Assembly: GCA_020137815.1 (NCBI GenBank)
Contig: CM035350.1
Location: 7,874,001 to 7,938,000, forward strand
Origin: Hormiphora californensis
Taxonomy: Eukaryota > Animalia > Ctenophora
DNA: 64,000 nucleotides
Direction of reading: 5' to 3'
Positions within the stretch are counted from its first letter, which is position 1, and every line of letters starts with the position of its first letter. Position numbers and translations under genes: made by a program. The notes beneath the pieces are model-generated. The model did not search any database. It was not told where the DNA came from and saw only the letters and a program-made list of their open reading frames with translations. Of the stretch, positions 9,647 to 50,700 are shown in pieces.

Positions 9647-9898
9647 CTCACCGCCCCTAGATTACCAGGCCATACAGGGTTGAGTTCCAATCAGGGGGTC
9701 ATATCTGACATTCCGGGGGGCTAAGGAGGGGTGCATGTTAGATTGGGGCAGAGTTGGGATGAGCGAGGGTGAGGGATAGTAAGACACATTAATTTGGTTG
9801 AAAGAAGAATTTCAGATTAAATAATGTCATGATTAAATTTATTTACAAATCTTAAGAACTAAATACAAAAATATAAAAAAGGTTTAAATTATAAAATA

Positions 9899-11167: not shown

Positions 11168-11292
11168 TAGATTTTTGTCCATTTCTCACATTTCTCTTTC
11201 AATCTTACAACCAACAGGAAAATGCTTTGTTTGTCAGGGAAAAAACGAATATAGAGGGAGAGAGAGGGAGAGAGAGAAAGAGAGAGAGAGAT

Positions 11293-14567: not shown

Positions 14568-16361
14568 TTAAAGTTTGCTCTTTATGGCTCCCGTGGGGCC
14601 TACAACCCCAATGAGATTACCATTACCGAAAATGTTCTGTGGGTCTAGGCCCTGTTTGACAGCCATTAGGGCCTGTTTTCCCACTGATGATATGGTGCCC
14701 TCCAGGAACTGTGCCCGGACCTTCCCAATACCGTGATGGTGTGAGACACTACCCCCGTTAGCGAGTACTTCCTCTCGGGCTGCCTGCTCCAGATTACTGT
14801 ACACAGCCATCGGATCAGCCAGACCTACACTTGAAAACCCAAAGTAGAAGTAGCAGCATGCGCCAGTGTCATAGCATTGTGTTACTCTGGCAGCGCTGTA
14901 CGGGGTGTGACAAACTCCCTGTTCCAAACAACTGTCAACAATGCGTTGCTTTACATTCTTTATCAGGTCACTCACCCTGTCCCAGGGGACGGAGGTTTCA
15001 AAACTCTCCGCTACAAAATGATAGTCCATGCCCAGATCACGAAGGTAGGCAATGGAAAATGTGAGGAGGTATCCTTGTTTTCCGTTCTCTTCCCCCGCTG
15101 GAATTCCCCCAAACCCTGCTGCAATATCGTATATCTGCTTCTGCTCCCACTGCACCCGATCCTTAGCTCCCTCGAACACCACCGTACACAAGGAGATCTT
15201 CTCTTGCTTGAACCCACGTAACCGAGTTATGTAAACTTGCTTTACATAATCTGTCATTTTCTCAAATATGCTCTTCTCTCCCTTGAGTGCAAGACCGAAT
15301 TGCAGCTGCTCGTTGTCCATTAGTCGAATGGATGCCGGGTAAATCTTTTTCCTCGATACCTCGTGCAGGAAGTTAATACCTTTGTCAAACTCAGGGAAGA
15401 TAAGAGATCCATACTCGGTACACTCGGGAAGAGGCTTGATTTTTAGTGTAACCTCCGTGATGACTCCTAACGTGCCCTCTGATCCCAGGATCATTTGATG
15501 GACATCAGGACCACAACTAATTCTGGGGACTTGGCAGCTCTTTTCGATTGTTCCCTTGGCAGTAACCATCTTTACTCTCACCACCATATCCTCAATATTC
15601 CCATAGATGTTCTTCTTCATGCCGCTCGCCCTAGTTGCTACCCAGCCGCCCAGTGAACTGAACTCCAGGGAGTCAGGCTGGTGCCCTGTTGTGTAGCCTT
15701 CTCTCTCCAGCTGCTTCTCCAGATCCTGCCCAATGATGCCTGCCTCTATATGTGCCATCAAGTTCTCTGGGTCTATCCAATGGATGCGATTCATTTCTGT
15801 CATGTCCATGGAGACGATGGTTCGACGCTCTTCTGTCGGACAGAGCAGGGCCCCTGAGACGGAGGTGCCGCCACCCATGGGGATGATAACAACGTTGTAT
15901 TTAGTAGCTAACTTCACCAGTTCTTCCACATCTTTGTGACAGGAGGGGAAAACTACCATATCAGGAATTCGATCAAAGTACTCGTTGTTTCGGAGCACGT
16001 ATATTTCTTCACAGAGATGACCGTGTCCGTGCATTAGACGATCTTCCGCATCCTCCGAGATGGATTTGCACCATTGGCGAGCCTCGGCAACAAATTCAGG
16101 GCAGCGGATCGGTTGGGGAATTTTAGACAAATCGAGAGGTTTGGCTGGCGATTTTTCATTGGTGTTTGCTCCCAAATGTTCTCTAAACCATTTCATCAAA
16201 TGTGGCATAGATATTCCACACATCGGATATCGGTTCCCAGAGAAGGTACAAGTGTCAGTGTCTGGTGCATGAATAAATTTGGAATCCCTGTATCCCCAAC
16301 CATTCCACTTCAGACCCTCTTGACGTTTCATTGGAAACGCCTTTTCTTCATCTGCGAGCAT
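14568..16361 (-). CDS. AGPS: Alkyldihydroxyacetonephosphate synthase (FAD-linked, peroxisomal), ~597 aa, uninterrupted CDS
   Basis: KWNGWG, GGGTSVS, GHQPDSLEFSSLGGWVATRASGMKKNIYGNIED, ESFETSVPW, SHHHGIG; C-terminal SKL. First ATG is at 16361 (the track start at 16460 is a non-ATG extension). Confidence 0.97.
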   Translation of the reverse strand: MLADEEKAFPMKRQEGLKWNGWGYRDSKFIHAPDTDTCTFSGNRYPMCGISMPHLMKWFREHLGANTNEKSPAKPLDLSKIPQPIRCPEFVAEARQWCKSISEDAEDRLMHGHGHLCEEIYVLRNNEYFDRIPDMVVFPSCHKDVEELVKLATKYNVVIIPMGGGTSVSGALLCPTEERRTIVSMDMTEMNRIHWIDPENLMAHIEAGIIGQDLEKQLEREGYTTGHQPDSLEFSSLGGWVATRASGMKKNIYGNIEDMVVRVKMVTAKGTIEKSCQVPRISCGPDVHQMILGSEGTLGVITEVTLKIKPLPECTEYGSLIFPEFDKGINFLHEVSRKKIYPASIRLMDNEQLQFGLALKGEKSIFEKMTDYVKQVYITRLRGFKQEKISLCTVVFEGAKDRVQWEQKQIYDIAAGFGGIPAGEENGKQGYLLTFSIAYLRDLGMDYHFVAESFETSVPWDRVSDLIKNVKQRIVDSCLEQGVCHTPYSAARVTQCYDTGACCYFYFGFSSVGLADPMAVYSNLEQAAREEVLANGGSVSHHHGIGKVRAQFLEGTISSVGKQALMAVKQGLDPQNIFGNGNLIGVVGPTGAIKSKL

Positions 16362-17165
16362 TTTATTGTCTAGGAAAGTATATAATGTTAGCTCAAATAA
16401 ATCTTGGAAGTCAGTTATAAAAATACTATAAAATTTAAATCCCAGGTAAGTTGGTGCCACTGCCTTGTATTGCTAACAATCCATCAATTTTGGCGGTCGA
16501 GACGGGTTAGGCCTTAGGGCTGTCAGGTAGGGGCCTAATTTGGGTTATATTTTGCGTTATCGGTTAGTGATATCGATTATTTATAAGACATTGTTTGGGC
16601 GACTCAAATCGGCGATGTGGCTGCATGGCCATGTCGTTTGTAAGTTGCAAAAGTCGGTCTGAAAAAGTGAAAAAAATTAAAAAAATTCTTACAGATTTTT
16701 ATTTGCATTTCACGCCACCGCCGCGCATATCATTGCACCTGCCTACGACGCAATACGTGTAACGCGCGATATAATATAATCTTAACTGCGGTATAATTTT
16801 GCTTGGCGTCCACGGATTTTATTTTCTGTAAGCGCTTTTTTAACGATTTTCTCCTTTTCGGTTTTTGACAAGTCGTGTCCGTCTCCGTTCTTGGTTCAGA
16901 TTCTACCTACTAACAGACCGAAATCGGATCAAAAGAACCATTCTGGCGATGCGATTTTTATCTTTATTCTCTCTCTTATTCTCGCTCTTTTTTAGATAGG
17001 AGCCTGGCTGCGGGGTGACTGTGAGAACCCCCTGGGCAGTGGGCCCTGCTGGACCGCCTAGCCTGGACGGATTTCTGGTCAGCTTCTCGAGAGTCGAAAC
17101 GAATCTGACGAAACCAGATTTACTTTTTATCTTATTTATTATTAGGATATTTTAGACCTTAATTT

Positions 17166-31712: not shown

Positions 31713-32987
31713 ATGTCACTTCTCCTCGATGTACTGTACCTCTTGTTGTTGGTGGGAGGCACCTTGGCCCAGAGCGAGGATCCCTTTGCAGAGTTTGATA
31801 CCGACGAGGCTGTTCTCGTGGAGCAGGATGACTATGACATCATTGAGGTGGGTGTAAAACTGGTGGTTAATTTATTTGTAACATGTGGGTGTAAAACTGG
31901 TGGTTTAGTTTAGTTTGTAATTCTCCTTCATTACGTACATAAAGTTTATGTTTACTAAGATAAAAACATGCTCGTTTATATGAGGCCTTTAATTTTAGGA
32001 TGTCATGATATTTGTATGAACGTGCGTGTCGTATATCACATATTAAGCTTGGAGTTTATCTCCCCTTCGTTAATCTCACTCCATCCCTATTCCAGTCGGA
32101 AGTAGTAGAAGAGCCGCCCCCTGTGACGTCAGACCAACAAATGATTGACGATGACGTTGACACGGGTGATGACGTCACGATAGAGGACGAGGATTTTGAG
32201 GGTGTGGAAACGAACGAGAAACCCGCACCGGGGGGAGGGAATAAAGAACTTAACATTATCAAGGGCCCGATTAATATGAAGGGGCAATGGGAGGACTATT
32301 ATCTCGAGATAATTGGACTAATTGGGGTGTTTGTTTATGCACTTAACTTCTATACCGGTAAAGCTATCAATAACCGGTTGGCTAATGCCTGGTTCGATCA
32401 CCACAAGAAGTTATTGAGCGAGGCGTTCTGTATTGTGGGGGATGATGGTGTCAGTAAGGAAGTTAGCGATGGTATCTTGGTGAAGGAGAGTGAGAACAAG
32501 TTTGTGGTGTGGTGTACAGGTCGGATGGGCTGTGAGGGGATCAAGATCGAGATCAAATTGCTACGTCGACAGGATCTCATCTCTCTGATTTCCCAGTTGT
32601 TCAAACCTCAGTCTGATACAATAACCATCACAACGTACATGGCACCGGATGATATGGACAGTATTGTACTGGCGATAATGCCCAAGAAGGGCCTCAAACG
32701 GCTCCAGCAGGAAGTACAGGACCTGGCCCATTTTGCCACCGAGAGGAAGATAGAGAGTTATGATCTGCCGAGTACACTGGGTATCCTGGTGGAGTTTACC
32801 GAGGTCGCTAACGATTTACTGACTACCCCCGTCTGCAGGACCATCACCGAGAATATTGATGTGTTCGATTCCATTCATTTCTCCGATTACTACACTGGTT
32901 TCAAGATCTCGCAAGAGGGCCAGGTGGAAACGGACCGACCTAAACCCATGAAACGGCTCATCTTCAACTTTGTTATTCCCGGACATG
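31713..32987 (+). CDS. CCDC47: CCDC47 (PAT complex subunit), exons 31713-31847 and 32096-32987; 3' part not seen (gap)
   Basis: Signal peptide, acidic DPFAEFD region, TM (YYLEIIGLIGVFVYALNFYTGK), then N..LA.AWF, IVGDDG, WCTGR..C, L.RRQDL, IHFSD. Confidence 0.9.
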
Positions 32988-33516
32988 GTAAGCCATTATT
33001 TAGCAGCTTATTGCCCCAGATTATCGTCATATGCAGCGTGACAAATTGTACTGTCACTTTCCTAACTCATTCTGCCTCCTCTGAACCGATCATTAGTTCC
33101 CACTGTTGTCTTCCCTCTCTCTCTCTCTCTCTCCCTCCCTCTCTATCTCACTTTCTATCTCTCTCACTTTAATAACTGCAATTGTTCCAGTCGTGTCTAT
33201 AATATGAGTAAAAATAATGCCCCCCCCCCCCCATTATAATACTTCTCATAGGACACATTAGTTGTAACACTGTTGCCAACAATCATGAGAGAGTATATAT
33301 AGAAGAGGAGAGAGAGAGAGAGAGACGAGCCCCAGAGACAGCAATGAGAGAGATAGAGATGGAGACTATTAGAGGAGAGAGAGAGAGGAAAATGTCAGCT
33401 ATTCTCATATATTAGATCGGAGCTATTTACGTGCAGTACAGTAAACTCTTCCTATATCGTTTCCGCAGCTCCGAATCACTCTTCCGCATCTCTCTCTAGC
33501 TCTCTCTCTCTCTCTG

Positions 33517-33550
<34 letters not shown>

Positions 33551-34582
33551 NNNNNNNNNNNNNNNNNNNNNNNNNNNNNNNNNNNNNNNNNNNNNNNNNN
33601 NNNNNNNNNNNNNNNNNNNNNNNNNNNNNNNNNNNNNNNNNNNNNNNNNNTATGGAAAATTTTTCAAAATTTGCCCACCTTAAAGTTTTACCCCAATCAA
33701 CATAATTGGTTAAAAATAAATTTGGTTTCGAACCAAACTAAGAACATTCTTTTAAAAAATTCCTTTGGGTATTCGAAAGTTTTTCACTAAAGAACCCGGC
33801 ATATTTGAATTATAGCTTTTTCTAATTTTTTTATGACCCGAGTAAACTTTTTTTTTGGAGGCCCATTTCTCAGTGACAAAACAAAGATTGGATGTTTTAT
33901 TACATCTTGAACGATATGTAATCGTCCAATGAACAAGCTTGATGCAAAAAAACATCACGCCGGTACCATTTTTAAGAGATACAGCAACTTTAGTACTAAA
34001 ACTCGTAAATCGCGATTTTCCAAAGCGGCAACAGGAGTGGCGTAGAGAAAATAGCCTACTGGGAACCGAGAACAGCCATTATTATATACCGATATCAGAC
34101 ATGACATTCCGATCCAAAATCGCATGAGAAAAACGGTGGTGATGTCCATTTTGCTCTATCTCAAACCATTTTCCCATAAAAGCCAAACGAAAATATTTAC
34201 TGGACAGCCTAATATTTTCTCTTACTTTCTTTTTCGGTAGGCAACTACTTTCACCTTCATTTTCATTTTCAGCCTGCTCAACCTTTCACTTTCATTATGA
34301 TAGAAGTCGTTGGGACGAATGGCAGGGTGTTAGGCCACCTGCTGCTGGCACGGTAGAGAATTTGAGAGACCCCGTGAGGGCGAAATAGGGAGAGAGACTA
34401 GAGAGATATGAGAGAGAAAGTGGGGGAGAGAGAGAAACGGTCCTCTCACTTTCGTTTCAGCTCAACTCCCAAGGATCATTATAACAGCTAATGTTGGGAC
34501 GAATAGCAAGGCGATGAGCCACCTGCTACTGGTTGTGGTAGAGAATATAGGAGAAGGGATCCCATCCCTAGGGAGAAAGGGA

Positions 34583-34729
<147 letters not shown>

Positions 34730-35234
34730 GGAGAGGGAAAGATATAGGGAGAGAGAGAGAAGGAGTGAGAGAGAAAGAGAGTAGAAAGCGAGAAAGGAGA
34801 AAAATAACATGAGAGCCTTTTGTTAGAAAACTCAACAAACACCACTGAGTCAGCAGGTAAACACCACACAACATTTCGCACATGCAGTAATCAGTATTCA
34901 CCCATCAATCCCCTTGCCTACCAACCATAACAACTACTCAATTTGCACGTGAAAATTCTGGAAGCCATTTAATATAGTTAGATGATTTATGTTCTAAATA
35001 TAATATGAATTTCCCTGCCGTGTGAAGCTCTGAAGAAACCATGGCTAGATTATCTGTGTCAGAAAATTTCACGCCACACATTTCCTGAAAATGCGTCAAT
35101 AAAGTGTTTTATGAAGGAGCAGCTCGTTACTGTGTCCACGGCTCTTTAGTTGCTACCCCGTTGCCCCTCACAACAAAATGGGACATTTTCGGTCCCTCGA
35201 TCTACCGATTAGTTAGTGTTTAGTTAGTGACTAG

Positions 35235-35394
35235 TGAAATGAATGAAGTATTGAATGGATGAGTATAATGTTTTGGAGTCGAGTAGGTACTAAGATGACA
35301 ACAGCTAGATTCACCAAACAAGAAGTGTCTTATCTATAAAACATTGCTCACGCATTGCACATGACATAATATAAAATATAACCTATACATCACA
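35235..35394 (-). repeat. 3' LTR (160 bp)
   Basis: Base-for-base identical to 46577-46736 by visual comparison. Confidence 0.95.
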
Positions 35395-35396
35395 TA

Positions 35397-35405
35397 TCCT
35401 TCCCT
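35397..35405 (-). other. Polypurine tract
   Basis: AGGGAAGGA, 2 nt upstream of the 3' LTR on the minus strand. Confidence 0.8.
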
Positions 35406-35583
35406 AAAAAATCAAAAAATACAGAAATATATATATATAATATGAGTGTCCATGTATCAAAACAATCGCATCTTGATAAAACATAAATCAATAAACTTAA
35501 AATATCTTTAACTAATTAATAATTATAACACTATTTAGAAATCCTGTAAATCATATACCGGTATCTTATTCTAACTTTATAAT

Positions 35584-37185
35584 TTATATTTTCCCGGTTT
35601 CTCTGAGATGGAAAATATAATAAGAACTTGATAGAACTTGATTAAACCATACTGAAATTTCCGCTTGACTCTGCGGTGCCCTATTAGAACTCTTTAGGTT
35701 ACTCTTTATATAATCAATGGCCTCTATGAAGAAATCAAATCGCCTGAAAATAAACAACTTTAATTCTTCCTTTAGAACATCCACAGGTTTGGATCTGTGG
35801 GATGTATGCTGCTTTAAAATTGACACTGGAACAAACAATTTAGGGCCACGTCCGAAAGACCTTTTCGTGATGTTGGCCAGAATCTGTACTCTATCTAATA
35901 CTACCAGTAAATCTGAAAAACACTGTATGGGGGCCGATAGCTCGGAGTGGAGGGTGCCCCACCAATCCTCTGTAATGTTATCTAGAAACTCCTTTATAGA
36001 ATCCAACTCCAAATTCGCACTGTAACTGGGTCCCCACTCTTTAGGCCGCAGAGAGTGAACCTCTGGGTCGATCTGTACTTCACTCATAACCTGTAAAATA
36101 GAAGCGTGAGTAGCTCTTCTTTTATCCCCTGTATTTGACAACTTTAAACCATCTAATTTATCTTTAAGGACCTTTAATGTTCTCTCCACCTGCTCTTGGG
36201 AGTTAAATTTAGAAAACCTGTAACCATTGATCTGAGATCGCCCTGCATTGGTGATCCTATTTCTAGCATCAACCCCCGGGTATGGCTCAACTCTAGACGA
36301 CCTGGAAGACACTACAGAGTAGGTCACGTTAGTAGCCGACACGTTAGACGCGGCGGCTGACGCAAATGTAGAACCCCCAAAATGGGCAGGGGTGTTAGCC
36401 TGTAATGGAACGTCAGTATCCCCGGAAATCTTCCGGTCCTGTAGATTAGCTGGGGGTCGCTTCCCCAAGATACCCTGTAAAAACTCTATCTTCTCTGTAA
36501 TCTCCTCTCTTTCGAGAAGGAGGGCCGCTAAATTCTCTTTAGCCTCCTTCTTCTCGTCGGAGGTCATATCCGGTAACTCAGGGTGCCTGAGGGGAGGGAA
36601 TTCCGGTAACTTTACTTTATTCTTTATGTTAGCCTTTACCGCCTCGATGTACTTGGCGGGTACTTCATACTTACGAACTGGACAAATACGGTCCAGCTCC
36701 CTGTAATCCCCGACTAAGAAGTCAGGTTCGCAGACTTTAACAAACTCTACCTGTATTTTACACACCTCTAGAGACCATCTGGCCATTTTCCATGTAAATG
36801 GCTTCTCTGAACTGTAACATCCTGTAAGAAAATTCTGTATATTGGACAGTCTGTCCCTAGTGGAACTGCCACTAGTCAGACTGTACCGCTGTAGTGCGAA
36901 GTCGGCCTGGACCTTGTCACGGTCCGACATCGCACTCCACCCTACCTGTAGACACCTAGCCACTGGGGCTAGTTTTGATGGAACTGTAAATTTGTCACCT
37001 GTATCAGAGGCAACACTGCCGTCTGTAACTACTCCTGTACCGGCCGAAGCCCAACTATCCTTATCTGTATCGTCCTTACCTGTAGTGGTGGCTCCTGCCA
37101 CCGATACTTCACCTGTAGCCCCTAACCGCTCCATCTCCTCGTCCACGTTCCAGTCCAGTGCATCCGGTGGCTGGTTGCTGTCCAT
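35584..37185 (-). CDS. Orphan accessory ORF4 of the provirus, 533 aa
   Basis: Intact ATG-to-stop ORF between env and the PPT, on the same strand; no recognisable family, signal peptide or TM. Confidence 0.8.
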   Translation of the reverse strand: MDSNQPPDALDWNVDEEMERLGATGEVSVAGATTTGKDDTDKDSWASAGTGVVTDGSVASDTGDKFTVPSKLAPVARCLQVGWSAMSDRDKVQADFALQRYSLTSGSSTRDRLSNIQNFLTGCYSSEKPFTWKMARWSLEVCKIQVEFVKVCEPDFLVGDYRELDRICPVRKYEVPAKYIEAVKANIKNKVKLPEFPPLRHPELPDMTSDEKKEAKENLAALLLEREEITEKIEFLQGILGKRPPANLQDRKISGDTDVPLQANTPAHFGGSTFASAAASNVSATNVTYSVVSSRSSRVEPYPGVDARNRITNAGRSQINGYRFSKFNSQEQVERTLKVLKDKLDGLKLSNTGDKRRATHASILQVMSEVQIDPEVHSLRPKEWGPSYSANLELDSIKEFLDNITEDWWGTLHSELSAPIQCFSDLLVVLDRVQILANITKRSFGRGPKLFVPVSILKQHTSHRSKPVDVLKEELKLFIFRRFDFFIEAIDYIKSNLKSSNRAPQSQAEISVWFNQVLSSSYYIFHLRETGKI

Positions 37186-37246
37186 CCGCGACTGCCGTAG
37201 TAAATTCCTAAAAAAGTCTACAAGGGAAGTTGGAGCGTTAATGTAT

Positions 37247-38971
37247 TTATCCTGTAGTCGAATTTACGGAATCTAGATCTGTATCTGTTCCTTTATCTAC
37301 AACCATGTTATAATCGACTATGTATTGCTTTAATCTATATCTAATAAATACTATTACTCCTATAATGCCACCAATATAAAGCAGTATAATTATTCCTATA
37401 GCTATACTTAAACCTATATTGAAATGGTCTTTATATTTATTGTTAAACAACGGAATAAAAGCACTGGAAAGGGTGGTATTATACTTTAAGCTTAACTCAT
37501 TAATATGCTGTATAACTTCGTCTGCTGTATACCTAAAATGCAATCTAGACAAAGTTAAATTGTAAGAAGCCAAGACAATGGGCTCACTCGTTACTGATCT
37601 AGATAATATTTGTACTCCGCACACAATTAAACTCGAAAAATCTTCCCATTTAACAAAAGAAGATTTCGTTGTGGGGAGAGATGGGTGAATAACGTTAAGT
37701 TCATCCTGTACTACGTAACTAGAGCTATCTAGATCTCTGAATAAAATACCAGTAGAAATAATGCTGTAAGTGCACCTAGGCCTGCACGTCTCTGTAATCA
37801 GCGAGCAACTAAATGTTTTCGACTGTATACACGATGTACTGTTTACTATAGTAAATGATGAGCATACATGCAAAGCGTTATGTTGAGAGCAACTTGATAT
37901 ATCTATATCTATAAACTCATTACCTTTAAGAACTACATATTTAGGGAGGTCAAATCTACCACACTCATTTCCCTTGATCGAAAAACCTACTTGATGCGAC
38001 TTAAATAACGGGAAAATATGCTCAGACTCTTTAATAACTGGTATATGGATAACAAAATGAGCTAAGGAAAAGTCTTCATCTAAACTCAGTAGCGAAATTT
38101 TTGCAATAGAATACATTAAATGTGGCTCTTTATAAAAAATTGATTCTTTAATCTCTGTGTGCTCCTGTACCATTAATTTTAACGTAATAGGATCAATTAA
38201 CTTAGGGGTAAGAACTAAGTCATTCTGGCCTGATAAGGCCGGGAACAAAATATCGTCGATGATCCTAGAACACCTCCAGAACAACGACTCTAAATCCCTA
38301 ATTAAATCGTTAGCATCACTGTAGCATGTTTTAGAATCCATGTATCGTATAAGTATCTCATCTACCGATTTAACGTAAGAAAAGATGTTACTTTGCACTG
38401 TATTTAGCTCTACCTCTTGATTATTAACTACTTCTCGAATCTCGTTAATTACTTTAGAATTATCCTTAATGTGACTCTTTATGCTACTAATTCTATTTGA
38501 ATTAATACCGCTAAACACCAGGCTACCTATGGTGCCTACTCCCAACACAAAATCTGTTAAAGATCTACGATCTCTGTGCCGACTCACTGTATCTACTTTA
38601 TCCTGTATAATATAAGGCGCTAGTGTGCGTTTACGAACAGCTATAAACTCTTCCGCTCTACTAATCCAAGCTAAGGCTGAATAATTCATGGACTGTATAT
38701 CGTGAAAATTATTAGACTCCCTTACTAAGTGCCTAATGCGGGGAAAATTAGAGGGAGGTTTGCACGACAAAGCATCTGTATTAGCTTCAACTTGATGTTT
38801 TAACTTGTGTACTAAATCTGGAAGCTTTATAAAAACTGATATAACTGATTCTTGATTAGATATGGCTACTTTACCAACTTGATCTACTGCTAGTCCTCGC
38901 CCATGATCTAACAAAGTATGACCACAATTAGGCGGGACTAAAATACTTATAAGTAGTAGGGCAATAAGCAT
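37247..38971 (-). CDS. env: Envelope class I fusion glycoprotein (F-type), ~574 aa from ATG 38971
   Basis: Signal peptide MLIALLLISILVPPNCG, furin site RHRDRR, fusion peptide SLTDFVLGVGTIGSLVFSG, heptad repeat, Cys-rich block, sequons NYS/NST/NLT/NTT, C-terminal TM and short tail. Confidence 0.9.
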   Translation of the reverse strand: MLIALLLISILVPPNCGHTLLDHGRGLAVDQVGKVAISNQESVISVFIKLPDLVHKLKHQVEANTDALSCKPPSNFPRIRHLVRESNNFHDIQSMNYSALAWISRAEEFIAVRKRTLAPYIIQDKVDTVSRHRDRRSLTDFVLGVGTIGSLVFSGINSNRISSIKSHIKDNSKVINEIREVVNNQEVELNTVQSNIFSYVKSVDEILIRYMDSKTCYSDANDLIRDLESLFWRCSRIIDDILFPALSGQNDLVLTPKLIDPITLKLMVQEHTEIKESIFYKEPHLMYSIAKISLLSLDEDFSLAHFVIHIPVIKESEHIFPLFKSHQVGFSIKGNECGRFDLPKYVVLKGNEFIDIDISSCSQHNALHVCSSFTIVNSTSCIQSKTFSCSLITETCRPRCTYSIISTGILFRDLDSSSYVVQDELNVIHPSLPTTKSSFVKWEDFSSLIVCGVQILSRSVTSEPIVLASYNLTLSRLHFRYTADEVIQHINELSLKYNTTLSSAFIPLFNNKYKDHFNIGLSIAIGIIILLYIGGIIGVIVFIRYRLKQYIVDYNMVVDKGTDTDLDSVNSTTG

Positions 38972-39566
38972 CAACACACGTTGCAAAGTCTCAGAAGAAG
39001 AGAAAAATGGAAATAAACTAAAATTATCTTGCTGCAACGGAAGGGTTATATGATAAACAGGGTGTGCTCGTGAAACTTACTGCGCTGTTACCACTTATCT
39101 CTTAATCTACAAATTACTGCTCTTGCAGAGCGTGATATAATAAAATTATGCTGCTGCTCAGCACCTCGGCTGAGTCGTTATCGGCTAAATGAAGTTTTAA
39201 CCTAATTAATTAAGTAAAATATACAGTGGGATAAAAGAGAAACTTTAACACTTACTAAAGCTTTGTTAAGAGAGAGCTCAAAAAGTTCCATAAGATAGGA
39301 ATAATTCTAAGATAATCTGTGAGAAAAAATGTTAAAATCTTTCGGTACCTCTGTGCTGAAAGGGGTTCTGTGAAATATGATAAGAAGAGAACTGCGTCAC
39401 CTATCACTGTCAATACCATGTGATTGTTCAGTGACAGGCTGACCAATTATCTCCAAGACCCTATTACAAGCACTAAAATCTTGAGAATAAAACTAAAGAT
39501 TAGAGGTACGTGGAAAAGTGAATTATTTCACTTGAGTGGGAGAAAAAGAAGTTAATTAACAAAAAA

Positions 39567-40479
39567 TTAACTTTTCTTTTTAAGACTAACCTTGCTCTTT
39601 ACTGAAGGTATTGTCTTACTAGGTTTAGACTGCTGTCTCCCGTTATCTGTATCCGCTTGAAGAGTCTTTTCCTTTACCGGATCACTCTTATTGGATCCTG
39701 AAATCTTGGTTGATTTCTTGGTATACGGAATACTTGAACTCTCAAAGTGGCTGGTGGGTTGAGGATTCTTCCTCAAAGTATAAGGACCTTTATTCCTACC
39801 TTTATCTTTAGACGGAAGTAAACTACTCTCTGACTTAGTTCTACTTCTCGTTTTAAGACCTGTATAAGTACTAGTAGACAGGGATGAATCATCCTTCACC
39901 TGATTTGTTGATGCTGGTGTTGGTTTTACCGGTGTACTCGTCTCGGCATCAAAGAATTGATCCGGTGACTCGCTATCATCATCATCATCATCAGTTGGTG
40001 GTTCCTGTAATGGGGTTACTTCACCTTGGTTCTGAGGATCAGTTTCATTCTCTGAAGCTGCAATTAGAGGTGTAGGAGGTGATACTGATTCTCCTGGTTC
40101 CTCTGTTGACTCTGCTTCTGGAATCACCTGAACATCTGTAGTTTCGTCATCCTTATCCTGTATTGGAGAGACCTCTTTATCTGTAGTTAGTGTTAAATCT
40201 ATATTCTCACTCTCTTTAGGGGTTTCATGAGGGGGAGGGGGAGGGGGAGGGGGAGGGGGATGGGGATGGGGATGGGGAGGGGGAGGGGGAGGGGGAGGGG
40301 GAGGGTTAGAGGGGTTAGATTTAGGAGAATTTGGTGGGGAGGGGGATTTTGAAGGATTGGAAGGGGAGGTAACCCTTGATCTGGTGAATGGGGCTGTTGG
40401 AATACTGTCCCATTCAGAATCCGTGTAGTCATCTGTAGTCTCATAACTTGAAGCTCGATACCTTGTTTTCCCTGTATTA
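39567..40479 (-). CDS. C-terminal low-complexity tail of Pol, detached by the MITE insertion
   Basis: Removing 40480-41402 plus one TATTA copy gives a continuous frame ..KIDN-TGKTRYRASSYE..PPPP..DVQVIPEAEST..KKKS*. Confidence 0.85.
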
Positions 40480-41402
40480 TTAGGGCGTTTCAGAAATAAC
40501 TTCGCTTCGCGATATTTTGGGATCTATGATAGATAGAGACTTCTACCCAGTTTTATCTTGTTCAATGGACGATTCTCTTCTTGGGAACGTGTTTTGAATA
40601 GTTTACGGCAATGTTTAGTACCAAAAATTGGGTGATATGATACCAGAAGTCATGTTGCCGCTGAACGGGGTTCCCAGAGTTTTTCAAACGCCGCTGGAGA
40701 GGAGCTGATATGGATTTTTGGCTTTCTGTAGCGCTCAATCGATAGCCCATCGTCTAAGGATGAGATATATATGCGATTTGGGCCTCGACGCGTTGCTCAA
40801 AAACCTCTTGGACAGTAAGTGTAACATAAAAAGTCGAAAAAATGCAAAATTTCACCTCAATTTTTGGCTTGTTTTGGGGGTATGTTCGAAAACGTCAATT
40901 ATTAACTTTTATATGTCAACAAATCAAATAATTGGCTTGACTATGTGATAGAACTTCCTTAGAGCTATCTTTTGCTGCAAAGTTTTTGATTATGAGCTAC
41001 TCATATAAAAGGTGAAGGGACCCGGAAGTGAAACTTTCCAATTCTTACCGAATTTTTTTGGAGGCCGATTGCTCAGCCGCAAATAAAGTTAGGATCTTCT
41101 ATTACATCTTAAACGATAGATAATTGTCTAATTAACAAGCTTGATGCAATAAAACATCCCACAGATTCAATTTTCAAGAAGTACAGTAGTTTCAGCACTA
41201 TGCGCGTTTTTCCCGTTCAGCGGCAGTTTGAGTTAAAGGTGTTTCCGGGTTCGCTGAGAGCCACCCCTGATCAAAAATTTCAAAATAACTACGGTTGTGA
41301 GTAGTCAAGACTTCAAATAACACGCTACAAAAGTGTATATGTGGATATCTTCAATACTTTTTGAAAATATCGGGAGACGAAGTTATTTCTGAAACGCCCT
41401 AA
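40480..41402. mobile_element. 923-bp MITE inserted in pol
   Basis: Perfect TIR TTAGGGCGTTTCAGAAATAACTTCG; TATTA duplicated at 40475-40479 and 41403-41407; a diverged relative of its internal sequence sits at ~33850-33960. Confidence 0.9.
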
Positions 41403-44400
41403 TATTATCAATTTTATCTATATTGGGAGAGTATTTGTTAGGGGTATAATGTTTCATTTTTGAAATATTAATTACTCTCTCTGTATCTCCTATTTGTACC
41501 CTGTATAAATGCTGATTAATTACCTCGTTAACCTTATATGGTCCTGACCACTTATGTCCAAATTTATGTAATGGTACATTAATTAAAACCATACACTGCA
41601 TTCCTGCTTCAAAATAAGGACCTCTCGCATTCTTATCATAACTGTTAGCCATGAACTGAGCTTGTTTCTCAACTTGAGAGCTAACCTTCCGAACTGTATC
41701 TCGTACCTTTAGATAAACTTTATAAGCCTCGGTTTCATAATCTTTAAATTCCTTATCTTGAGGGTCTGGAATAAACAAATCTCGTGGTGAACGAGCTTCT
41801 CTACCAAACACCAAGAAATTAGGTGAAAATCCGGTACGATTAGATCTCATACAATTAAGGGTAAATACTATCCAATCTATATACTGGTCATATTTATGAA
41901 AATCTTTATTTCCCATTATAGCTCTAAAACATGTATTTATTCTACGGTGGGAAGATTCAACTCGGCCTTGAGTGGAAGACTTCCACGGAGTCGAGCGAAC
42001 ATTACTAATACCAAAAACTTTACATGTCTCTTTAAATAATTTAGACTCAAAACCTGAACCCTGATCATGACTAATTGAATCAGGTACACCAAATCTGGAA
42101 ATCCAATGCTTTAATATAGCCTTTATTGTGTGGTCAGCACTAGTTGATCGTACTGGTACACAAACGATATATGAACTGTAAAGATCAATCATAGTGAGCA
42201 AGGCAACATTACCAGATGGCGTTCTGCCCTTTTGTGGCTCGAGATGATCTATCTGTAGGCATGCATTGAATGATTCACAGAATTGTGGCTTTAACGGCGC
42301 TTTAAGTGGCCTATTAGTGGCTTTAACCTGATGACATGTGATACAAGCACCTACATACAACTTTATTTCCTGCTTTATTTTATAGAAGTGAAAACGCCTA
42401 GAAACTTGATCAACCGTGTTTTTAACACCTGGGTGACAACTACCCATGAGATTGTGAAACATGTAGATAGCACGCTTTATGAGAGTATGTGGAACTACTG
42501 TTACCCAATTATAATTATTACTCTCTTGATTAAATACTTTATATTTTAACAACCCTTTACTATACTTTAATAGTTCAAATTTCCGATAATAATACCAAGT
42601 CTCACGGTTACTTCGTATTGGATCAATATCTTCTGGTTTCGATCCAACCGAGACCCAAGATATAACTTCAGATAATATCATGTCATTTTGATACTCTCTG
42701 ATGATATCATCCGTGGTGACTGGATCTAGAGACTCATTTTCACAATCTGGCTCTGAAACTCTGAGTACTCTCTCAAACCTTGACACCATATCTCCTTCAT
42801 TTTCTGAATTGCTATTTACCTCATTACCGTTATCAACATCATAATTTTCACAATTTTCACTTTGCTCTTCATCTGTATCCTGTACCGATATATGCCGCAC
42901 AGAGTTCACAGTCTGTGTGCCGACCGTGTTCTCCGAGATGCCGTAAGCATATCGACTGAGATAATCTGGTATCTGTATCTCCTGCGATTTACCAGAAACA
43001 TGATGGATTGTAAACTGGAAACCTGAGAGATCTGATAACCTTCTCTGCATATATGCATTATCTTTACTAAAAATAGTATTCAAATTCTGTAAACTCTTAC
43101 AATCAGTATAAACTGTAAACTTTGTTCCCTGTAAGTATAATCTCCAATTCATAATAGCTGAATGCAATGCTAAAAACTCTAACCTAGTTGCACCCCATCT
43201 CTGGAAATGCTTAGGAAGCTTCTTAGAGTAATATGATATCACTTTACGTTTTTTAGTCCTTGAATCTAACTGAGACAAAACTGCACCAAGTCCCTTTTTT
43301 GACGCATCCAGAGTCAAAACATACGAAGAGTATTCGTCATTAACACTTGGAATACCCAAAATAGGAGCAGTAGCTAAGCAAGACTTTAGCTTGTCAAATG
43401 AAACTTGACACTCTTTAGTCCACTTAAACTCTGTAATAGATTTACCTGTAAGGTCATATAATGGAGCTGAAATTGAAGCAAAATCTCTAATGAAAAGTCT
43501 ATGATAATTAACCATTCCCAAAAACTTTTGAACTTGCTTCACACTAGTGGGAGGTGGTAAATTTTTTATAGCTTTAACTTTATCGTGATCTACCGCTATT
43601 CCTTCTTTAGAAATTCTAAGACCTAAAAACTTAACTTCCTGTTGAAACAATTTGGTCTTCTTTGGAGAAAGTTTCAAATTGCCAAAAGTTAATCGGTCTA
43701 GAACAAACCTCAATCGCTTTAGATGCTCTGGATAAGTGTTACTACAAATAAGTAAATCATCTATGTATAGTAAGAGTGCTTTAAACGGTACTTTTTGAAA
43801 TAAACAAGCCATAGCCCTTGAAAACTCACTACTTGACGAAGTTTGACCCTGTATCATACGGTTGAACATGTATCTCTTGCTATCATAAGTAAATGCCGTG
43901 AGATGTCGACTTTTCTCTTCTAGCCCGATCTGTGTGAATGAACTCACAAAATCGAGTGAAGACAAAATCTCTGTCTCCGTAAGACGGTCAAATACATTTC
44001 TAATCTTAGGTAGCTCATAATTATCCTGTATACATTGTGAATTTAAACTTCTCGCATCTGTAACAAAACGATAAGTAGATCCTGTAGAATTAGATTTGGG
44101 TACCATAAACACTGCTGAATTCCATAAACTGTACTTACATGGAGAAATCTGGCCTGACTTACATAATGCAGCGATTTCCTGATCCATGTGGGGCTTTATT
44201 TTGTACGGAATGGGCCTAGATGGAACCCATTTAGGTACAAAATCACGCTTTAAATTCAATTTTGACTCATAAAATGATGCACAACCTAGATCATTCTTAT
44301 CACGAGCAAAACAATGACTATACTCTGTAACTAACTCTTTCAATTGCTCTCTGTAGAGTGCGGGAACATGAGAAAGGTTGTCAATTTGCAATTGCTCATG

Positions 44401-45342
44401 CAGCTGATTGACATCTTTCCATTTTCCTGTCTCAATAGTCTCCTCTACCGTACATGCAGTATCTAGACGGGGAATGTCTAGATCGGCATTATACCACTCT
44501 TCTTTACCCGTTACTCTTTTCAAAGATCTTACTTGATCTGTTTCACCTTTATTAATCGGCTCAAAAAATCCAAGTAGCTGATTTCTGTATACCTTTATTG
44601 CATTATCTGTGGGGTTGACGCAATGCACGTGAATTTTATTACCTTTAGAGTAAGATAATGTTCCGGTCACTAACAAATTTGATTTGCATGGTAAGCTACG
44701 ATAAGGTTCAACCACTCCTTCATAATTGTTGTCACGCTGTTTCTTAGATAACGGAAAGTTCCCAAGAACAAACATGGAACAATTAGGTGGAACTGTAACA
44801 GTCTGAGATAATCTAATTCTAACTTTATTCTTTATAACAAGGGGTTTTAATTGACTCTCACACACTCTATTAGAGATTCTAACTGTATTAGATGGAACAT
44901 CAATAATCATTTCCATGGATCTGATAACATCCATACCGAGTAAGAAATCGGTATCAATATGATCACATACGATGAAAGTTTCAATACTACTAGCACCATT
45001 TATCTCTATCTGTAAATCTATCTCACCTCTCATCGGTATAAGCTTCTGACTAAGACCTGCTATAAGCTTATTAGTGGGTTTTACATTATCAGCTAAACCT
45101 ATAATATGTACGAGTCTAGTAGCAACTAAACTGACATGAGCTCCTGTATCTACTAAATAATTTACTGGTTGATCTCCACAAAACCCATTCAAAACAATAT
45201 CACGTGAGAGAGGTCTCCTTTGTCGAGACTCATTCGCACATCTATTGACGGAGCTAGATGGTTCTTGCGAATGTGAATCAACGGTAGGGTTGCCTGTAGA
45301 TATAAAATACCTCTCTCTAAAGAAAATTCTGTTTATGACCAC
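41383..45342 (-). CDS. pol: Pol polyprotein (protease, dUTPase-like spacer, RT, RNase H, integrase), truncated by the MITE
   Basis: LVDTGA; YIDD; LDASKKGLGAVL..LEFLAL..TDCKSL; HHCC (H..SCHPG..CITC); D-D-E (IDH, HDQG, RVES); WSGPY. Confidence 0.95.
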   Translation of the reverse strand: MVINRIFFRERYFISTGNPTVDSHSQEPSSSVNRCANESRQRRPLSRDIVLNGFCGDQPVNYLVDTGAHVSLVATRLVHIIGLADNVKPTNKLIAGLSQKLIPMRGEIDLQIEINGASSIETFIVCDHIDTDFLLGMDVIRSMEMIIDVPSNTVRISNRVCESQLKPLVIKNKVRIRLSQTVTVPPNCSMFVLGNFPLSKKQRDNNYEGVVEPYRSLPCKSNLLVTGTLSYSKGNKIHVHCVNPTDNAIKVYRNQLLGFFEPINKGETDQVRSLKRVTGKEEWYNADLDIPRLDTACTVEETIETGKWKDVNQLHEQLQIDNLSHVPALYREQLKELVTEYSHCFARDKNDLGCASFYESKLNLKRDFVPKWVPSRPIPYKIKPHMDQEIAALCKSGQISPCKYSLWNSAVFMVPKSNSTGSTYRFVTDARSLNSQCIQDNYELPKIRNVFDRLTETEILSSLDFVSSFTQIGLEEKSRHLTAFTYDSKRYMFNRMIQGQTSSSSEFSRAMACLFQKVPFKALLLYIDDLLICSNTYPEHLKRLRFVLDRLTFGNLKLSPKKTKLFQQEVKFLGLRISKEGIAVDHDKVKAIKNLPPPTSVKQVQKFLGMVNYHRLFIRDFASISAPLYDLTGKSITEFKWTKECQVSFDKLKSCLATAPILGIPSVNDEYSSYVLTLDASKKGLGAVLSQLDSRTKKRKVISYYSKKLPKHFQRWGATRLEFLALHSAIMNWRLYLQGTKFTVYTDCKSLQNLNTIFSKDNAYMQRRLSDLSGFQFTIHHVSGKSQEIQIPDYLSRYAYGISENTVGTQTVNSVRHISVQDTDEEQSENCENYDVDNGNEVNSNSENEGDMVSRFERVLRVSEPDCENESLDPVTTDDIIREYQNDMILSEVISWVSVGSKPEDIDPIRSNRETWYYYRKFELLKYSKGLLKYKVFNQESNNYNWVTVVPHTLIKRAIYMFHNLMGSCHPGVKNTVDQVSRRFHFYKIKQEIKLYVGACITCHQVKATNRPLKAPLKPQFCESFNACLQIDHLEPQKGRTPSGNVALLTMIDLYSSYIVCVPVRSTSADHTIKAILKHWISRFGVPDSISHDQGSGFESKLFKETCKVFGISNVRSTPWKSSTQGRVESSHRRINTCFRAIMGNKDFHKYDQYIDWIVFTLNCMRSNRTGFSPNFLVFGREARSPRDLFIPDPQDKEFKDYETEAYKVYLKVRDTVRKVSSQVEKQAQFMANSYDKNARGPYFEAGMQCMVLINVPLHKFGHKWSGPYKVNEVINQHLYRVQIGDTERVINISKMKHYTPNKYSPNIDKIDNIRAFQK

Positions 45343-46546
45343 TTGATTCTCTATAAACGTTATTAATAGTTTTCTTTAAACCTGGACAATTCTTCATATA
45401 ATGCTCACCTTTACAAATATAACACTCTAACTTACGACTACGGGAATCAGATCTACCGATATTACTATATCGCCCTCTACTGTTAGAGCGACCTCTGTAT
45501 GAACGATCTCTATAACTGAATCTATCCGAAGATCGTCTTCGGCCTCTGGACCTGTCCCAGGAACGGTCACGAGAACGATCGCGTGAGCGATCCTGAGATC
45601 GATCGCGAGAACGATCGCGAGAACGATCACGGTAGCGACCTTGAGAACTATCCCGGTAACGACCTTGAGAACGATCACGAGAATTACCTCTATACCTTTC
45701 CCTAGAATCGGATCTATTTCTGTATCCCGATCCACCTGCAGTGTTTGATTCAGAACTATAAGGTGTAGAACTCCGATAATTACCTTTATAATTGCGGTTT
45801 CTTGGCCTTGATCTATCAGAACTAAATCTTACCTCTGTAGTGGAACTCTTCATGATACTTGATGTAGAAGAAGATGTTGCTTCCTCCTCTTGATCCTTCG
45901 CGAGACGCTCAAGATGCTTGGCCTGCCTCACTGCGGTCTTGAATGAATCTAGATCCACGTTTTCGTTCAACTTGGTCCGGATACCTGGATCTGAAATACC
46001 TTTAAGGAATACCAACAAGCACTGGTCTTCAGCTGACTCCTTATCTTCTGGATAAGCTAGAGAAGCCTTTTTCCGCAATTTAAAAACATAATCTGAAATG
46101 GATTCGTTAGTCAACTGTTTACAAGCGTTTAACTGACGCCTCAGAGAAAACCTCTGTTCCCCGTAAATAGCTTTCTTGAAGAGTTCAAGAAACCGTTCGT
46201 GACTCTCTTGATCGTATTCATCAACTGTAACAGACTTAAACAACTGGTAGGTCTTATCATCCTTTATACTCTGCATAAACATTGGAAACTGCCTACTACT
46301 ACCTAGGCGAGCAACTTGACAATACTCTGCATATCTCTCGCAATGCAACATGAAATCATCTCCTTTATTGAAAGATGGACGTTCTGTCTGATTGGACAGA
46401 TTTAACAACTGAATAGCACTTGACAACTCAACTTCTCTACCCGAGCTTTCTTGAAGCTTGGATTCAAGCTCACTCTTGAAATCTGGATCATCCTTTATTA
46501 ACTGATCGACGCGCTCACTTATCTGTGTCTTAGTGAGATCCGTCAT
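45317..46546 (-). CDS. gag: Gag (capsid-like region, RS-rich linker, CCHC zinc knuckle)
   Basis: KQLTNESISDYVFKLR MHR-like motif, RDRS repeats and CYICKGEHYMKNC; the ATG is ~30 nt from the 5' LTR. Confidence 0.92.
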   Translation of the reverse strand: MTDLTKTQISERVDQLIKDDPDFKSELESKLQESSGREVELSSAIQLLNLSNQTERPSFNKGDDFMLHCERYAEYCQVARLGSSRQFPMFMQSIKDDKTYQLFKSVTVDEYDQESHERFLELFKKAIYGEQRFSLRRQLNACKQLTNESISDYVFKLRKKASLAYPEDKESAEDQCLLVFLKGISDPGIRTKLNENVDLDSFKTAVRQAKHLERLAKDQEEEATSSSTSSIMKSSTTEVRFSSDRSRPRNRNYKGNYRSSTPYSSESNTAGGSGYRNRSDSRERYRGNSRDRSQGRYRDSSQGRYRDRSRDRSRDRSQDRSRDRSRDRSWDRSRGRRRSSDRFSYRDRSYRGRSNSRGRYSNIGRSDSRSRKLECYICKGEHYMKNCPGLKKTINNVYRESSGHKQNFL

Positions 46547-46563
46547 CAAACAATTGGTTTTTA

Positions 46564-46574
46564 ATCAGGCTCCA
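46564..46574 (-). other. Putative primer-binding site
   Basis: TGGAGCCTGAT begins 2 nt after the 5' LTR, and TGG pairs with a tRNA CCA end. The tRNA identity is not established. Confidence 0.65.
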
Positions 46575-46576
46575 AT

Positions 46577-46736
46577 TGAAATGAATGAAGTATTGAATGG
46601 ATGAGTATAATGTTTTGGAGTCGAGTAGGTACTAAGATGACAACAGCTAGATTCACCAAACAAGAAGTGTCTTATCTATAAAACATTGCTCACGCATTGC
46701 ACATGACATAATATAAAATATAACCTATACATCACA
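46577..46736 (-). repeat. 5' LTR (160 bp)
   Basis: TGTGATG...CATTTCA on the minus strand, identical to the 3' LTR. Confidence 0.95.
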
Positions 46737-47317
46737 CTAGTGTATCAAAGATTATGTGATTTTCGAATTCTAACCGTCCTTAGGACGGTCCTAATGGCAG
46801 TTATTGTCATTGAGTGCAGTACGCAGTTGTGTTTGAGTGAAGTGAGTGGGTGAAGACGTGAAGTGCGTGCATTATGTAGGTAGTTGCCTGACTTGTACGT
46901 AAGAAGTAATTGAGTCACCCGGGTTGGTTTTTATCGAGTGATTATACACTTCCAGCAAACTATATGACAATGGGTGATCGTTTGGTGGACCATATTGTTT
47001 ATTATTACCATGGTAACCTTCCCATGAAGCTATGGTGAGTCTAATTCGATCATAAATACCATTACACGACAATCCAATATGGAAGTGTTGATGAGAAACT
47101 CGCCGAGAGGGTGGGAGAGAGATATAATAATTAATAGAGCTACCTGCTACAGCTGTTTGTGGCAAAGAATGTGGGGAGCCCATGAGAGACAACTTTCATT
47201 TTCATTTTCAGCCGCTAATGCGATCAGCTTCCACTTTCACTTTCACTACCGAAGCCGTTGAGACGAATGGCAGGGTAAGCCACCTGCTGCCGGTTGTGGT
47301 ACTGGTAGAGAATTTTG

Positions 47318-47704: not shown

Positions 47705-50700
47705 ATGATGAAGTTGTCGATGGTTATTCTGGTAGCCCTGGTTGGTGCAGTCTCTGCCGCCAATCTCAATTGCCCAAAGTGCGTCGAAACCGGTAAGTTT
47801 GGTGTTGTATTAGTACGTCCAGCATTTCAACGTGTCTTTAATATTATACTTACAGTAGGTTAGCGACTGGCTATTTGAAATGGCGGCTAGTTTGAAACAC
47901 CCCTTCTACAGGCCAGCAGGTGCACCATATTTGATTTTTAGACATCAGTGGGATAGTCAAACGGGGGGGGGGGGGGGGGGGGGGGGCCGGCTGAAGTTTT
48001 TGAAGTTTTTGAAGTCGACTTCAAAAACTTCAAACAGAAACTTAGGGTGGAAAACTTCAAAAACTTCAAAAACTCATATCTCCTAAACCGTTGCAGATAG
48101 GCCCTATGTTGCTTCATAACTCTTATATAAACTTGCATATTCCGAACAAGATACACCCCTTTAAAAATCCTATAGACACTCAGAAACCATTAAAACTGGT
48201 CTAGCCCAAAAAAAGTCATGCGCACATACAAAATTATGAAAATATCCCATTATCCCTCGAATTAGATGAGGTGGAGACTTCATTTTGGCACTTACCCCCA
48301 CTAACTCGAGGCCGCTGATGATTTTAGTGTCCATAGTTTTTCACTACTCCCTTCATAAAAAATTTGCATTTTGTGAAACTGGAAAAAAGGGTGTGGCCCC
48401 AAAAAAATTTTTGAAAATTTAATTCATAGTAATTTTAAACACTTTCTTAGCAATTTCTAGGCAATTTGAGTTTTTGAGAATGAAAATTAAATTTGTTTTT
48501 ACAAGAAAATTAAATTTTTCACACCAAATTGTGCCTTGGATTTCATGGCTAGGAATCATTGTAAATATCCTAATTTGTGCTAGAAAAAGGGCAGACAAGG
48601 ACGGATAACTTTGCCACAATATGTATTAAGCATGAAACTAACCTAAACAAGTGTAATAAAAGTCACTAATAGCATATAAAAGTAGTTAAGAGTTTTTGAA
48701 GTTTTTGAAGTTTTTGAAGTCAACTTCAAAAACTTCAAAAACTCAAAAAGTAGGGTGGAAAACTTCAAACTTCAAAAACTTCAGCCGGCCCCCCCCCCCC
48801 CAGTCAAACTCATGCCAAGCCCACTACTGTATAAAAATCCAAATTTGGTGCACCTGTTGTCCTATTATTATGTTTCAAATTAGCCGCCATTTCAAATAGC
48901 AAGTCGCTACCCTATATAATATATATGAATTATATCAAGGTGTGTCGGTACATCAGGAAATTACAAATTTGGAAACTGATATCAGTTTCCAGCTCCCAGT
49001 TACAAATGGCAGTGCTGAAACTACACGCAGCGCTACTTTCAAATGAGTCTCCCAGCTAGAAACTGGTGTCAGTTTCCTGCAACCTGGTGTCAGTTTCCTA
49101 TTTCTAACTGTCCCTCTCTCAATTATTCCCCTCTGTCAACCATTCCGTTCTGTCATAGCATAGACTTTTTGGCGCCCTTATCACAACCCATTGGCCATTA
49201 CTACTGCAGCTGCAGTGATGTGTACACTGTACACACACATTGACCCCTCTGTGTTGTGTTCTTACATGTGTACACTGTAGCTAGTCAGGGCATATGATAC
49301 CAAAAAATGCTGAAAAAGAGTGTTTTTGGTGTTTCTAGGGACCTATTAGAGTCTACTAGAAGTGGAATTAGCTTGATAACAATTATACCCTCATTTTATC
49401 ATCATATGCCCTTGGTAATGAAATTCCCCCTCTGCGCTAGCTCACGGAGGGGTAATAATATCGCTTGTACGGCGGGAAAAAAATTCCTGTGTCCAAACTA
49501 CAAAGCAGAAAGTTCTAATTTTTTGAACATACCGAGGAAATTGTCTGAGCTACCATTACATACCGGAATTTTTCGATATTTTGGCCATTAACACTGTTTT
49601 TGTTTTTGGAAAACTATGAAGATGCTGGAATTTGGCTACAAAAACCTTCAGAAATGTGCAAAATGCCATTCCAAAGGTATTAGAGGTGGATTCATTGATA
49701 ACTAAGCTATAGTCGAGTCAGAAAAAATTCCACAAGATTGGAATTTTATGCCCATATAAGGAGTTATGCGACACACCTCTGTTGTTAAACATGTGGTGTA
49801 ATCGCTACCGGTCGTTACTTTCTGTAGAATTCAGGTCCTGGTTACTATACAAACTAGTACCATACGTTTTAGATAGGTTTTTGACAAGTTTTTGATAACT
49901 TTTTATGAGAAGGTCCCGTAAATTTTCATTTTTAGGTAGGCGGTATTGTCACCCCTATATGCAATAATAGGGGTGACTTCGTAACCAACATATGCCCTGA
50001 CTAAGCGTGCAAATTCATCTCAATAACACGCTCCCGCCGCGATACAAAACTTGTACAGCCGGGATATATACTTTACCGGTATCCCATTTGTAATCAGCGT
50101 TCTCAAATTCAACTTTCCCCCAGAGAAGGGTACAGATTGTACAGCAACATCTACGCAATGTGACAGTGCTGCAGGAAGATGCTACAGTATTACATACACG
50201 TAAGTCATGAGGTAACACTCACAATTATAGCACAGTAAAAGAAAGGTACCTACGTCCTACATAATTTAAATATTTGGTAAAACATGCGGAATATAGCACC
50301 GTTAAACATATGTCTACCCCATCAGAAAGACACCGAAAGATGGGACAGCCAAAGAGTACTTCATGAAGGGCTGTGCTGTACCTACTACTACAGATGAGTT
50401 GACAGTGTTTGGTCTTGTAAATGATGCAGCCGTTGCAACATACACAGCCCTAAAAGGTGAGCGTAAATACCAGTACAAACCCCTCTACCTCTAGATACCA
50501 ATACAAACCCCTCTACCTCTAGATGCCAGTACAAACCCCTCTACCTCTAGATGCCAGTACAAACCCCTCTACCTCTAGATACCAGTACAAACCCCTTTAC
50601 CTCTAGATGCCAGTACAAACCCCTCTACCTCTAGATGCCAGTACAAACCCCTCTACCTCTAGATACCAGTACAAACCCTTCTACCTCTAGATGCCAGTAC

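Follow-up and report, generated by a model that had tools for sequence, protein, structure and literature searches.

An intact orphan gene between env and the 3′ LTR of a Ty3/gypsy element in the ctenophore Hormiphora californensis

Introduction

Does an LTR element of a ctenophore carry a gene of its own behind env, and if so, what might that gene do? The question is raised by an open reading frame, here called ORF4, in a 64,000-nt stretch of the Hormiphora californensis genome (contig CM035350.1, positions 7,874,001 to 7,938,000; this whole stretch is called the window, and coordinates below are counted from its first letter). A preliminary description, made from the letters of the window, had presented the frame as an intact orphan gene, placed where the accessory genes of complex retroviruses are found, and had offered a matrix-like Gag–Env adaptor, a silencing suppressor and a transactivator as possible roles.

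Results

A young insertion with four genes

ORF4 lies in a single LTR insertion that occupies 35235–46736 on the minus strand and is flanked on both sides by the target-site duplication CTAG. The two LTRs are 100% identical and, together with the CTAG duplication, mark the insertion of this Ty3/gypsy element as young. We found paired TG...CA LTRs, a target-site duplication, a primer-binding site (PBS) and a polypurine tract (PPT), the features by which Ty3/gypsy elements are recognised, and the pol domains identified with Pfam follow the Ty3/gypsy order PR-RT-RH-IN. The element reads PBS, gag, pol, env, ORF4, PPT (Table 1). Its interior measures 11.18 kb, of which 0.92 kb is a non-coding insertion and 1.66 kb is ORF4 together with the gap that separates it from env.

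Table 1. Parts of the element, in the order in which it is read
Feature	Position	Strand	Basis or remark
Target-site duplication CTAG, right copy	46737..46740	.	left copy 35231–35234
5′ LTR, 160 nt, TG...CA	46577..46736	-	identical to 3′ LTR
Primer-binding site	46563..46574	-	starts 2 nt inside the 5′ LTR boundary
gag, 409 aa, with an RS-rich stretch and a single zinc knuckle (CX2CX3HX4C)	45317..46546	-	homology to locus L001
pol frame (PR-RT-RH-IN)	41383..45375	-	Pfam; 59-nt overlap with the end of gag
920-nt non-coding insertion, terminal inverted repeats of ~37 nt	40482..41401	.	inverted repeat; splits the 3′ part of pol
Low-complexity P/S/T/D-rich frame, likely integrase tail past the insertion	39567..40481	-	likeness to L001 by eye
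env, 574 aa, class I / F-type anatomy	37247..38971	-	furin site, TM, sequons, homologue P0003
env–ORF4 gap, 61 nt	37186..37246	-	two splice-acceptor-like sites, no ATG
ORF4, 533-aa orphan gene	35584..37185	-	ORF, homologue, contigs of other runs, substitution test
Polypurine tract abutting the 3′ LTR	35395..35406	-	read directly in the sequence
3′ LTR, 160 nt	35235..35394	-	identical to 5′ LTR

This copy of the element is broken, its pol being interrupted by the 920-nt insertion, and ORF4 is whole. The longest stop-free stretch of the insertion is 79 aa, and a partial match to it (78%) lies outside the element at 33850–33998; since it sits inside a provirus with identical LTRs, it must have jumped very recently. 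The frame beyond it, which follows the integrase, includes a PTAP motif and a run of prolines. By eye, the pol of the metagenomic locus L001 has a similar-looking long low-complexity tail, and tblastn found no link between that tail and the frame at 39567–40481.

The gag product begins Met-Thr, and so has no myristoylation start; it matched no gag family in Pfam and is 32% identical to the ORF in the gag position of L001. In env we located a furin site (RDRR, at 133), a single TM peak (at 525) and five N-glycosylation sequons, along with a heptad region and a Cys-rich body, and recognised a signal peptide and a fusion peptide by eye. Its homologue P0003 is 26% identical and has Cys residues in common with it. 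No F family was matched in Pfam, and env alone found no match in the PDB; the best PDB match of a two-sequence profile was a class I heptad, a weak one (E 0.044). On its anatomy and kinship, env would be of the F type.

Further features were observed elsewhere in the window. A coding stretch of the host gene CCDC47, a subunit of the PAT complex (Pfam E 6e-56), occupies 32141–33172; beyond it, near 33551–33650, the assembly has a gap filled with Ns. At 14568–16472 there is a single-frame, apparently intronless gene for a 634-aa FAD-linked oxidase (FAD_binding_4 and FAD-oxidase_C). A fold-back element at 9897–11169 has 435-nt arms that are 98% complementary, with nested inner arms, and an element of about 1 kb at 47856–48914, with nested terminal inverted repeats, seemingly lies within an intron of a gene for a small secreted Cys-rich protein, which begins near 47705. 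From 23887 and from 50338 there are long tandem arrays, with units of 14 nt and 28 nt.

Kinship with ctenophore errantiviruses

The PBS shares 11 of 12 nt with that of Mlei_1 and 10 of 12 with that of Bfor_1, two ctenophore F-type errantiviruses, and its 9-nt core occurs in just these two rows of the 1512-element table of PMC13524379, in which many rows give none. RT clade X, to which the two are assigned, has three members listed there, all from ctenophores (PMC13524379). On the evidence of the PBS, the present element would also be placed in clade X, a kinship that points to a ctenophore as its probable host. Mlei_1 and Bfor_1 are likewise Ty3/gypsy elements of the gag-pol-env type with an almost identical PBS, but are annotated in PMC13524379 with three ORFs, whereas we find four genes. 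By the coordinates in that table their LTR-to-LTR interiors measure 12.15 kb (Mlei_1) and 11.83 kb (Bfor_1), and that of Pbac_1, from another clade, 7.9 kb (PMC13524379). The two clade X interiors exceed the sum of gag, pol, env and spacers of our element by 3–3.5 kb, which is unannotated; this spare length fits a fourth gene throughout the clade, the comparison being one of lengths and not of sequences.

A scan of metagenomes with pol yielded six loci, the closest of which (L001) has a pol 44% identical to ours. Neither env nor ORF4 was found in the six by tblastn; L001 ends 790 nt past its pol and is uninformative on any gene that might follow.

Anatomy of ORF4

ORF4 runs from ATG to TAA over 533 codons, 61 nt behind the env stop and 189 nt ahead of the 3′ LTR, in full agreement with the preliminary description of an intact frame between the two. 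In 300 shuffles of the stretch from env to the LTR the longest ATG-initiated ORF was 174 aa (mean 76), so that the length of ORF4 is not due to chance. Most of the layout proposed for its product was borne out as well. The N-terminus is acidic (15 D/E against 4 K/R in aa 1–66, with two Trp), a Trp/Cys region follows (three Trp and five Cys in aa 67–195), and aa 246–325 form a linker with 23% S/T. The short coiled coil corresponds to a four-heptad pattern at aa 212–241, in which 7 of 9 a/d positions are hydrophobic, the best of the seven registers. Because the highest hydropathy over any 19 residues is 1.26, there is no TM segment. The pI is 6.5, and the only run of three basic residues is KRR at 355. 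The helical C-domain and the disorder that had also been proposed are predicted from structure models of low confidence (pLDDT 35 and 40, almost all helix). Taken together, ORF4 would encode a soluble protein of 60 kDa in which an acidic arm is followed by a first domain and an oligomerising helix, and these by a linker that leads to a conserved C-domain.

Relatives of ORF4

Searches with HMMER among 1.84 billion representatives returned one match to ORF4, P0002, which is 50% identical over aa 416–518 (103 aa; E 7.8e-22) and keeps the RVQ, ANI, RSxGRGP, VLKE and FRRF motifs of the C-domain. It comes from a 517-nt contig without gene context. A word-index search gave no relative among 7993 candidates of near length or 2105 of shorter length. 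No relative appeared when viral contigs were scanned with ORF4, with the ORF4 alignment, and with env and pol, nor did scans for ORF4 in metagenomes (with the alignment as query) and in prokaryote genomes bring one to light. ORF4 matched no Pfam family at E up to 1, including the DEDDy, GDSL and SMC families, and nothing significant in NCBIfam or PHROGs. The Atlas held no usable match for the whole protein, the best being 0.80 for the C-domain. With the low-confidence models, Foldseek returned no match at E 0.001 or better, and the best hits of the VIA fold search (Z 6.6, on helical hairpins) were within background. Matches to the BRPF1 bromodomain at E of about 1 were dismissed as noise.

A match to a host gene, one of the findings named beforehand as refuting the proposal, did not appear in the family, PDB, Atlas or fold searches. 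The likeness to viral phosphoproteins suggested earlier holds for the layout alone: in Pfam, the PDB and viral folds, with poor models for the fold comparisons, nothing resembled a phosphoprotein oligomerisation or X domain.

Copies in other sequencing runs

Fourteen sequencing runs were listed, and 12 contain the stretch or part of it; four are possibly the source of the window itself, and four others were compared. No run confirmed as RNA was among those containing the stretch, and one presumed RNA run yielded no contigs over it, a result that does not bear on expression. In organism B, contigs 11–14 of run X5 cover ORF4 from end to end, and the env stop is joined to the ORF4 start on contig 14 of X5 and contig 20 of X9, which come from two studies; the X5 junction contig carries 16 gaps, which may or may not keep the frame. 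A second sample of organism A (X10) contains near-identical pieces, with one difference in 294 nt and none in 296.

The substitution test covered 70 of the 533 codons fully (461–530, against contig 11 of X5), two listed differences beside small indels at the last codons being omitted. Of 43 synonymous sites 9 were changed, and of 167 nonsynonymous sites 13, none of the changes producing a stop, so that the dN/dS check called for at the outset gave a ratio of about 0.33 (Fisher p 0.017). Among 33 listed differences over ORF4, a set that contains the 70-codon set and outside which lie 303 further differences and 35 indels, 15 are synonymous against some 22% expected (pN/pS 0.35, p 0.003). Within aa 461–518, one of seven amino-acid changes falls on a column shared with P0002, such columns making up 25 of 56, which is not significant alone. 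These differences point to purifying selection on ORF4 relative to the copy in the second organism.

The listed X5 contigs differ by 5–9% over ORF4 compared to 4% over env. The faster change of ORF4 would suit a host-facing protein; weaker constraint fits it too. Not all copies are intact. X9 holds some with skips of 261 and 266 nt and one with a 1-nt loss at 36832, all in ORF4, and in X10 a contig that is both diverged and deeper lacks 1 nt at 35862. The earlier concern that ORF4 might be absent or degenerate in sibling copies is therefore answered only in part, with ORF4 standing beside env in organism B while some X9 and X10 copies have decayed. In X10, most of env and aa 40–240 of ORF4 were left uncovered, an absence that filtering can cause.

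Pieces of ORF4 (36014–36117) and of the env tail (37270–37358) were also seen in X10 on contigs about ten-fold deeper, some of them frameshifted. These differ from ORF4 and the env tail by 10–15% and hint at high-copy deleted or related families with such pieces.

Expression of ORF4

ORF4 is out of reach of scanning from the genomic RNA. The gap ahead of it contains two acceptor-like sites, with AGs ending at 37218 and 37208, where 0.16 are expected per 61 nt of the element. Drosophila errantiviruses, for which no more than three ORFs are described, produce their env from a spliced RNA (PMC12992720), and ctenophore mRNAs are commonly trans-spliced (PMC8527503). From the features of the gap and from what is known of splicing in retroelements and ctenophores, expression from a separate subgenomic mRNA is likely; this would arise by cis-splicing or by spliced-leader trans-splicing to an acceptor in the gap. 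Some Tor elements, according to PMC4402516, use an internal promoter instead.

Discussion

Intact, longer than chance allows, borne by the element and selected, ORF4 occupies the slot behind env to which the preliminary description had assigned it, and we consider it probably a real accessory gene of the element. Its function is a more tentative matter. We rank an antagonist of silencing first, followed in this order by a transactivator, an assembly adaptor, cargo, and an enzyme or export factor.

In complex retroviruses, the genes behind env mostly encode regulators or antagonists, and it is because of this analogy that we favour, as a leading though by no means secure reading, a host-facing antagonist of silencing. 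ORF4 would then be a soluble, oligomeric two-domain accessory protein that aids the element by countering host silencing. The four-heptad helix would oligomerise it, the C-domain, whose Arg/Gly-rich motifs are kept in P0002, may bind nucleic acid, and the acidic, Trp-bearing N-terminal arm may recruit or block a host factor. Family, fold and motif searches gave no pointers to RNA binding or silencing in ORF4.

The foamy-virus protein Tas is an LTR transactivator, and a similar role for ORF4, although unlikely, comes next. The acidic arm with its two Trp would serve as the activating part, the heptad helix for dimerisation and the basic helical C-domain for binding to DNA, and the post-env position and the conserved basic motifs of the C-domain agree with this. 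However, no DNA-binding family was matched in the searches above, the lone KRR run makes for no strong classical nuclear localisation signal, and the LTR is just 160 nt long.

Slightly less probable in our view is a role for ORF4 as an adaptor in particle assembly, where it would stand in for matrix and bring capsids to Env-bearing membranes, perhaps through a diverged PX-like domain at about aa 135–240. The best PDB match of ORF4 is indeed the PX domain of sorting nexin-22 (SNX22; aa 164–237, E 0.039 with the whole protein), with aligned letters on VPxxYxE, PxFP and EFL; the gag product has no myristoylation start of its own, and ORF4 stays beside env in organism B. The E-value fell to 0.0046 after cropping, but the cropping was post hoc and one of about ten comparisons, and with a two-sequence profile the value was 0.083. 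A single PX chain scored, Pfam listed no PX family for the whole protein or for six sub-regions (the filters of HMMER drop weak matches), ORF4 has Ala or Lys where the SNX22 alignment has arginines, and the model of the region has a pLDDT of 35. The PX lead is probably a chance match. The matrix-like role proposed at the outset also sits badly with the sequence of ORF4, which was found to have no myristoylation start, no late-domain motifs and an acidic rather than basic N-terminus at a pI of 6.5, and Drosophila errantiviruses manage with the three ORFs noted above.

Somewhat more doubtful again is the possibility that ORF4 is cargo, that is, a gene acquired from some other mobile element or from a virus, or a nested insertion that has since eroded, selected for some other role or only weakly for this element. 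Its GC3 of 47% stands out from the 29–35% of pol, env and gag (one host exon tested has 59%), the deeper X10 contigs hint at other families with pieces of ORF4, and rotifer retroelements of different classes share ORF3 types, according to PMC5408684. Yet its codon usage tracks that of gag, pol and env (correlations of 0.43–0.56) and not that of the one host exon tested (0.08). It shares the element's orientation and is tightly spaced, and neither an inverted repeat nor a duplication nor a poly(A) run was seen at its edges, the longest shared word being 9 nt, so that the nested element considered beforehand has left no recognisable ends. A second gag or capsid was tried as an identity for ORF4 and rejected (blastp E 4.9; hhalign probability 0.5% with two-sequence profiles). 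An old capture followed by long residence in the element fits these observations best.

That ORF4 is an enzyme or RNA-export factor of unrecognised fold, acting on the RNA or cDNA of the element, we regard as improbable: rotifer ORF3s do include DEDDy nucleases and GDSL esterases (PMC5408684), and C, D, H, R and E residues persist in the C-domain at 50% identity, but no enzyme family was matched at E up to 1–10 and the low-confidence models are almost all helix.

A bolder proposal, to which we give the least credence of all, joins several of these threads. The ctenophore errantivirus clade would be ‘complex’, with the F-type env and ORF4 as an old two-gene module, and ORF4 would be a dedicated matrix equivalent, derived by capture of a PX-like lipid-binding fold and serving to bring capsids to Env membranes. 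If true, a PX-like matrix equivalent would be the first in Ty3/gypsy elements and would offer a handle on the enveloped particles of non-insect errantiviruses. The mode of transmission of errantiviruses beyond Drosophila is unknown, according to a 2026 survey (PMC13524379).

With the host-facing antagonist as the preferred reading, ORF4 is a new protein family and a candidate for counter-silencing or particle assembly. Its worth is limited by the fact that extra ORFs are common in LTR elements and that the function of ORF4 is predicted only.

Comparison with known systems

In foamy viruses tas and bet lie between env and the 3′ LTR, and Bet is soluble and roughly of the size of ORF4. The post-env genes of complex retroviruses belong, however, to another virus family, and no sequence likeness between them and ORF4 was found. 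Lokiretroviruses, as described in PMC7947760, resemble the present element in combining an LTR element and a Mononegavirales-like F env with a fourth, lineage-restricted gene. In contrast to it, they are a vertebrate sister group of retroviruses and not Ty3/gypsy, and their extra gene, smc, is SMC-like (PMC7947760). ORF4 showed no match to SMC.

The non-env ORF3s of Juno and Vesta in bdelloid rotifers (PMC5408684) and the sense aORFs of plants (PMC7264820) are, like ORF4, family-specific extra genes in sense orientation ahead of the 3′ LTR, and in these accounts they are typically separate spliced units. They replace env (PMC5408684, PMC7264820), whereas ORF4 comes besides it. The main text of PMC13524379, as distinct from its figure supplements, mentions no accessory or post-env ORFs, and a literature search whose scope took in few subscription papers returned no report of a large ORF behind an errantivirus env. 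Extra ORFs in LTR elements are thus already known, and what seems new is a large fourth gene behind the env of an errantivirus, a group whose members are described as having three genes. ORF4 would show that accessory genes like those of retroviruses arose in errantiviruses too, probably in one of the earliest-branching animal phyla.
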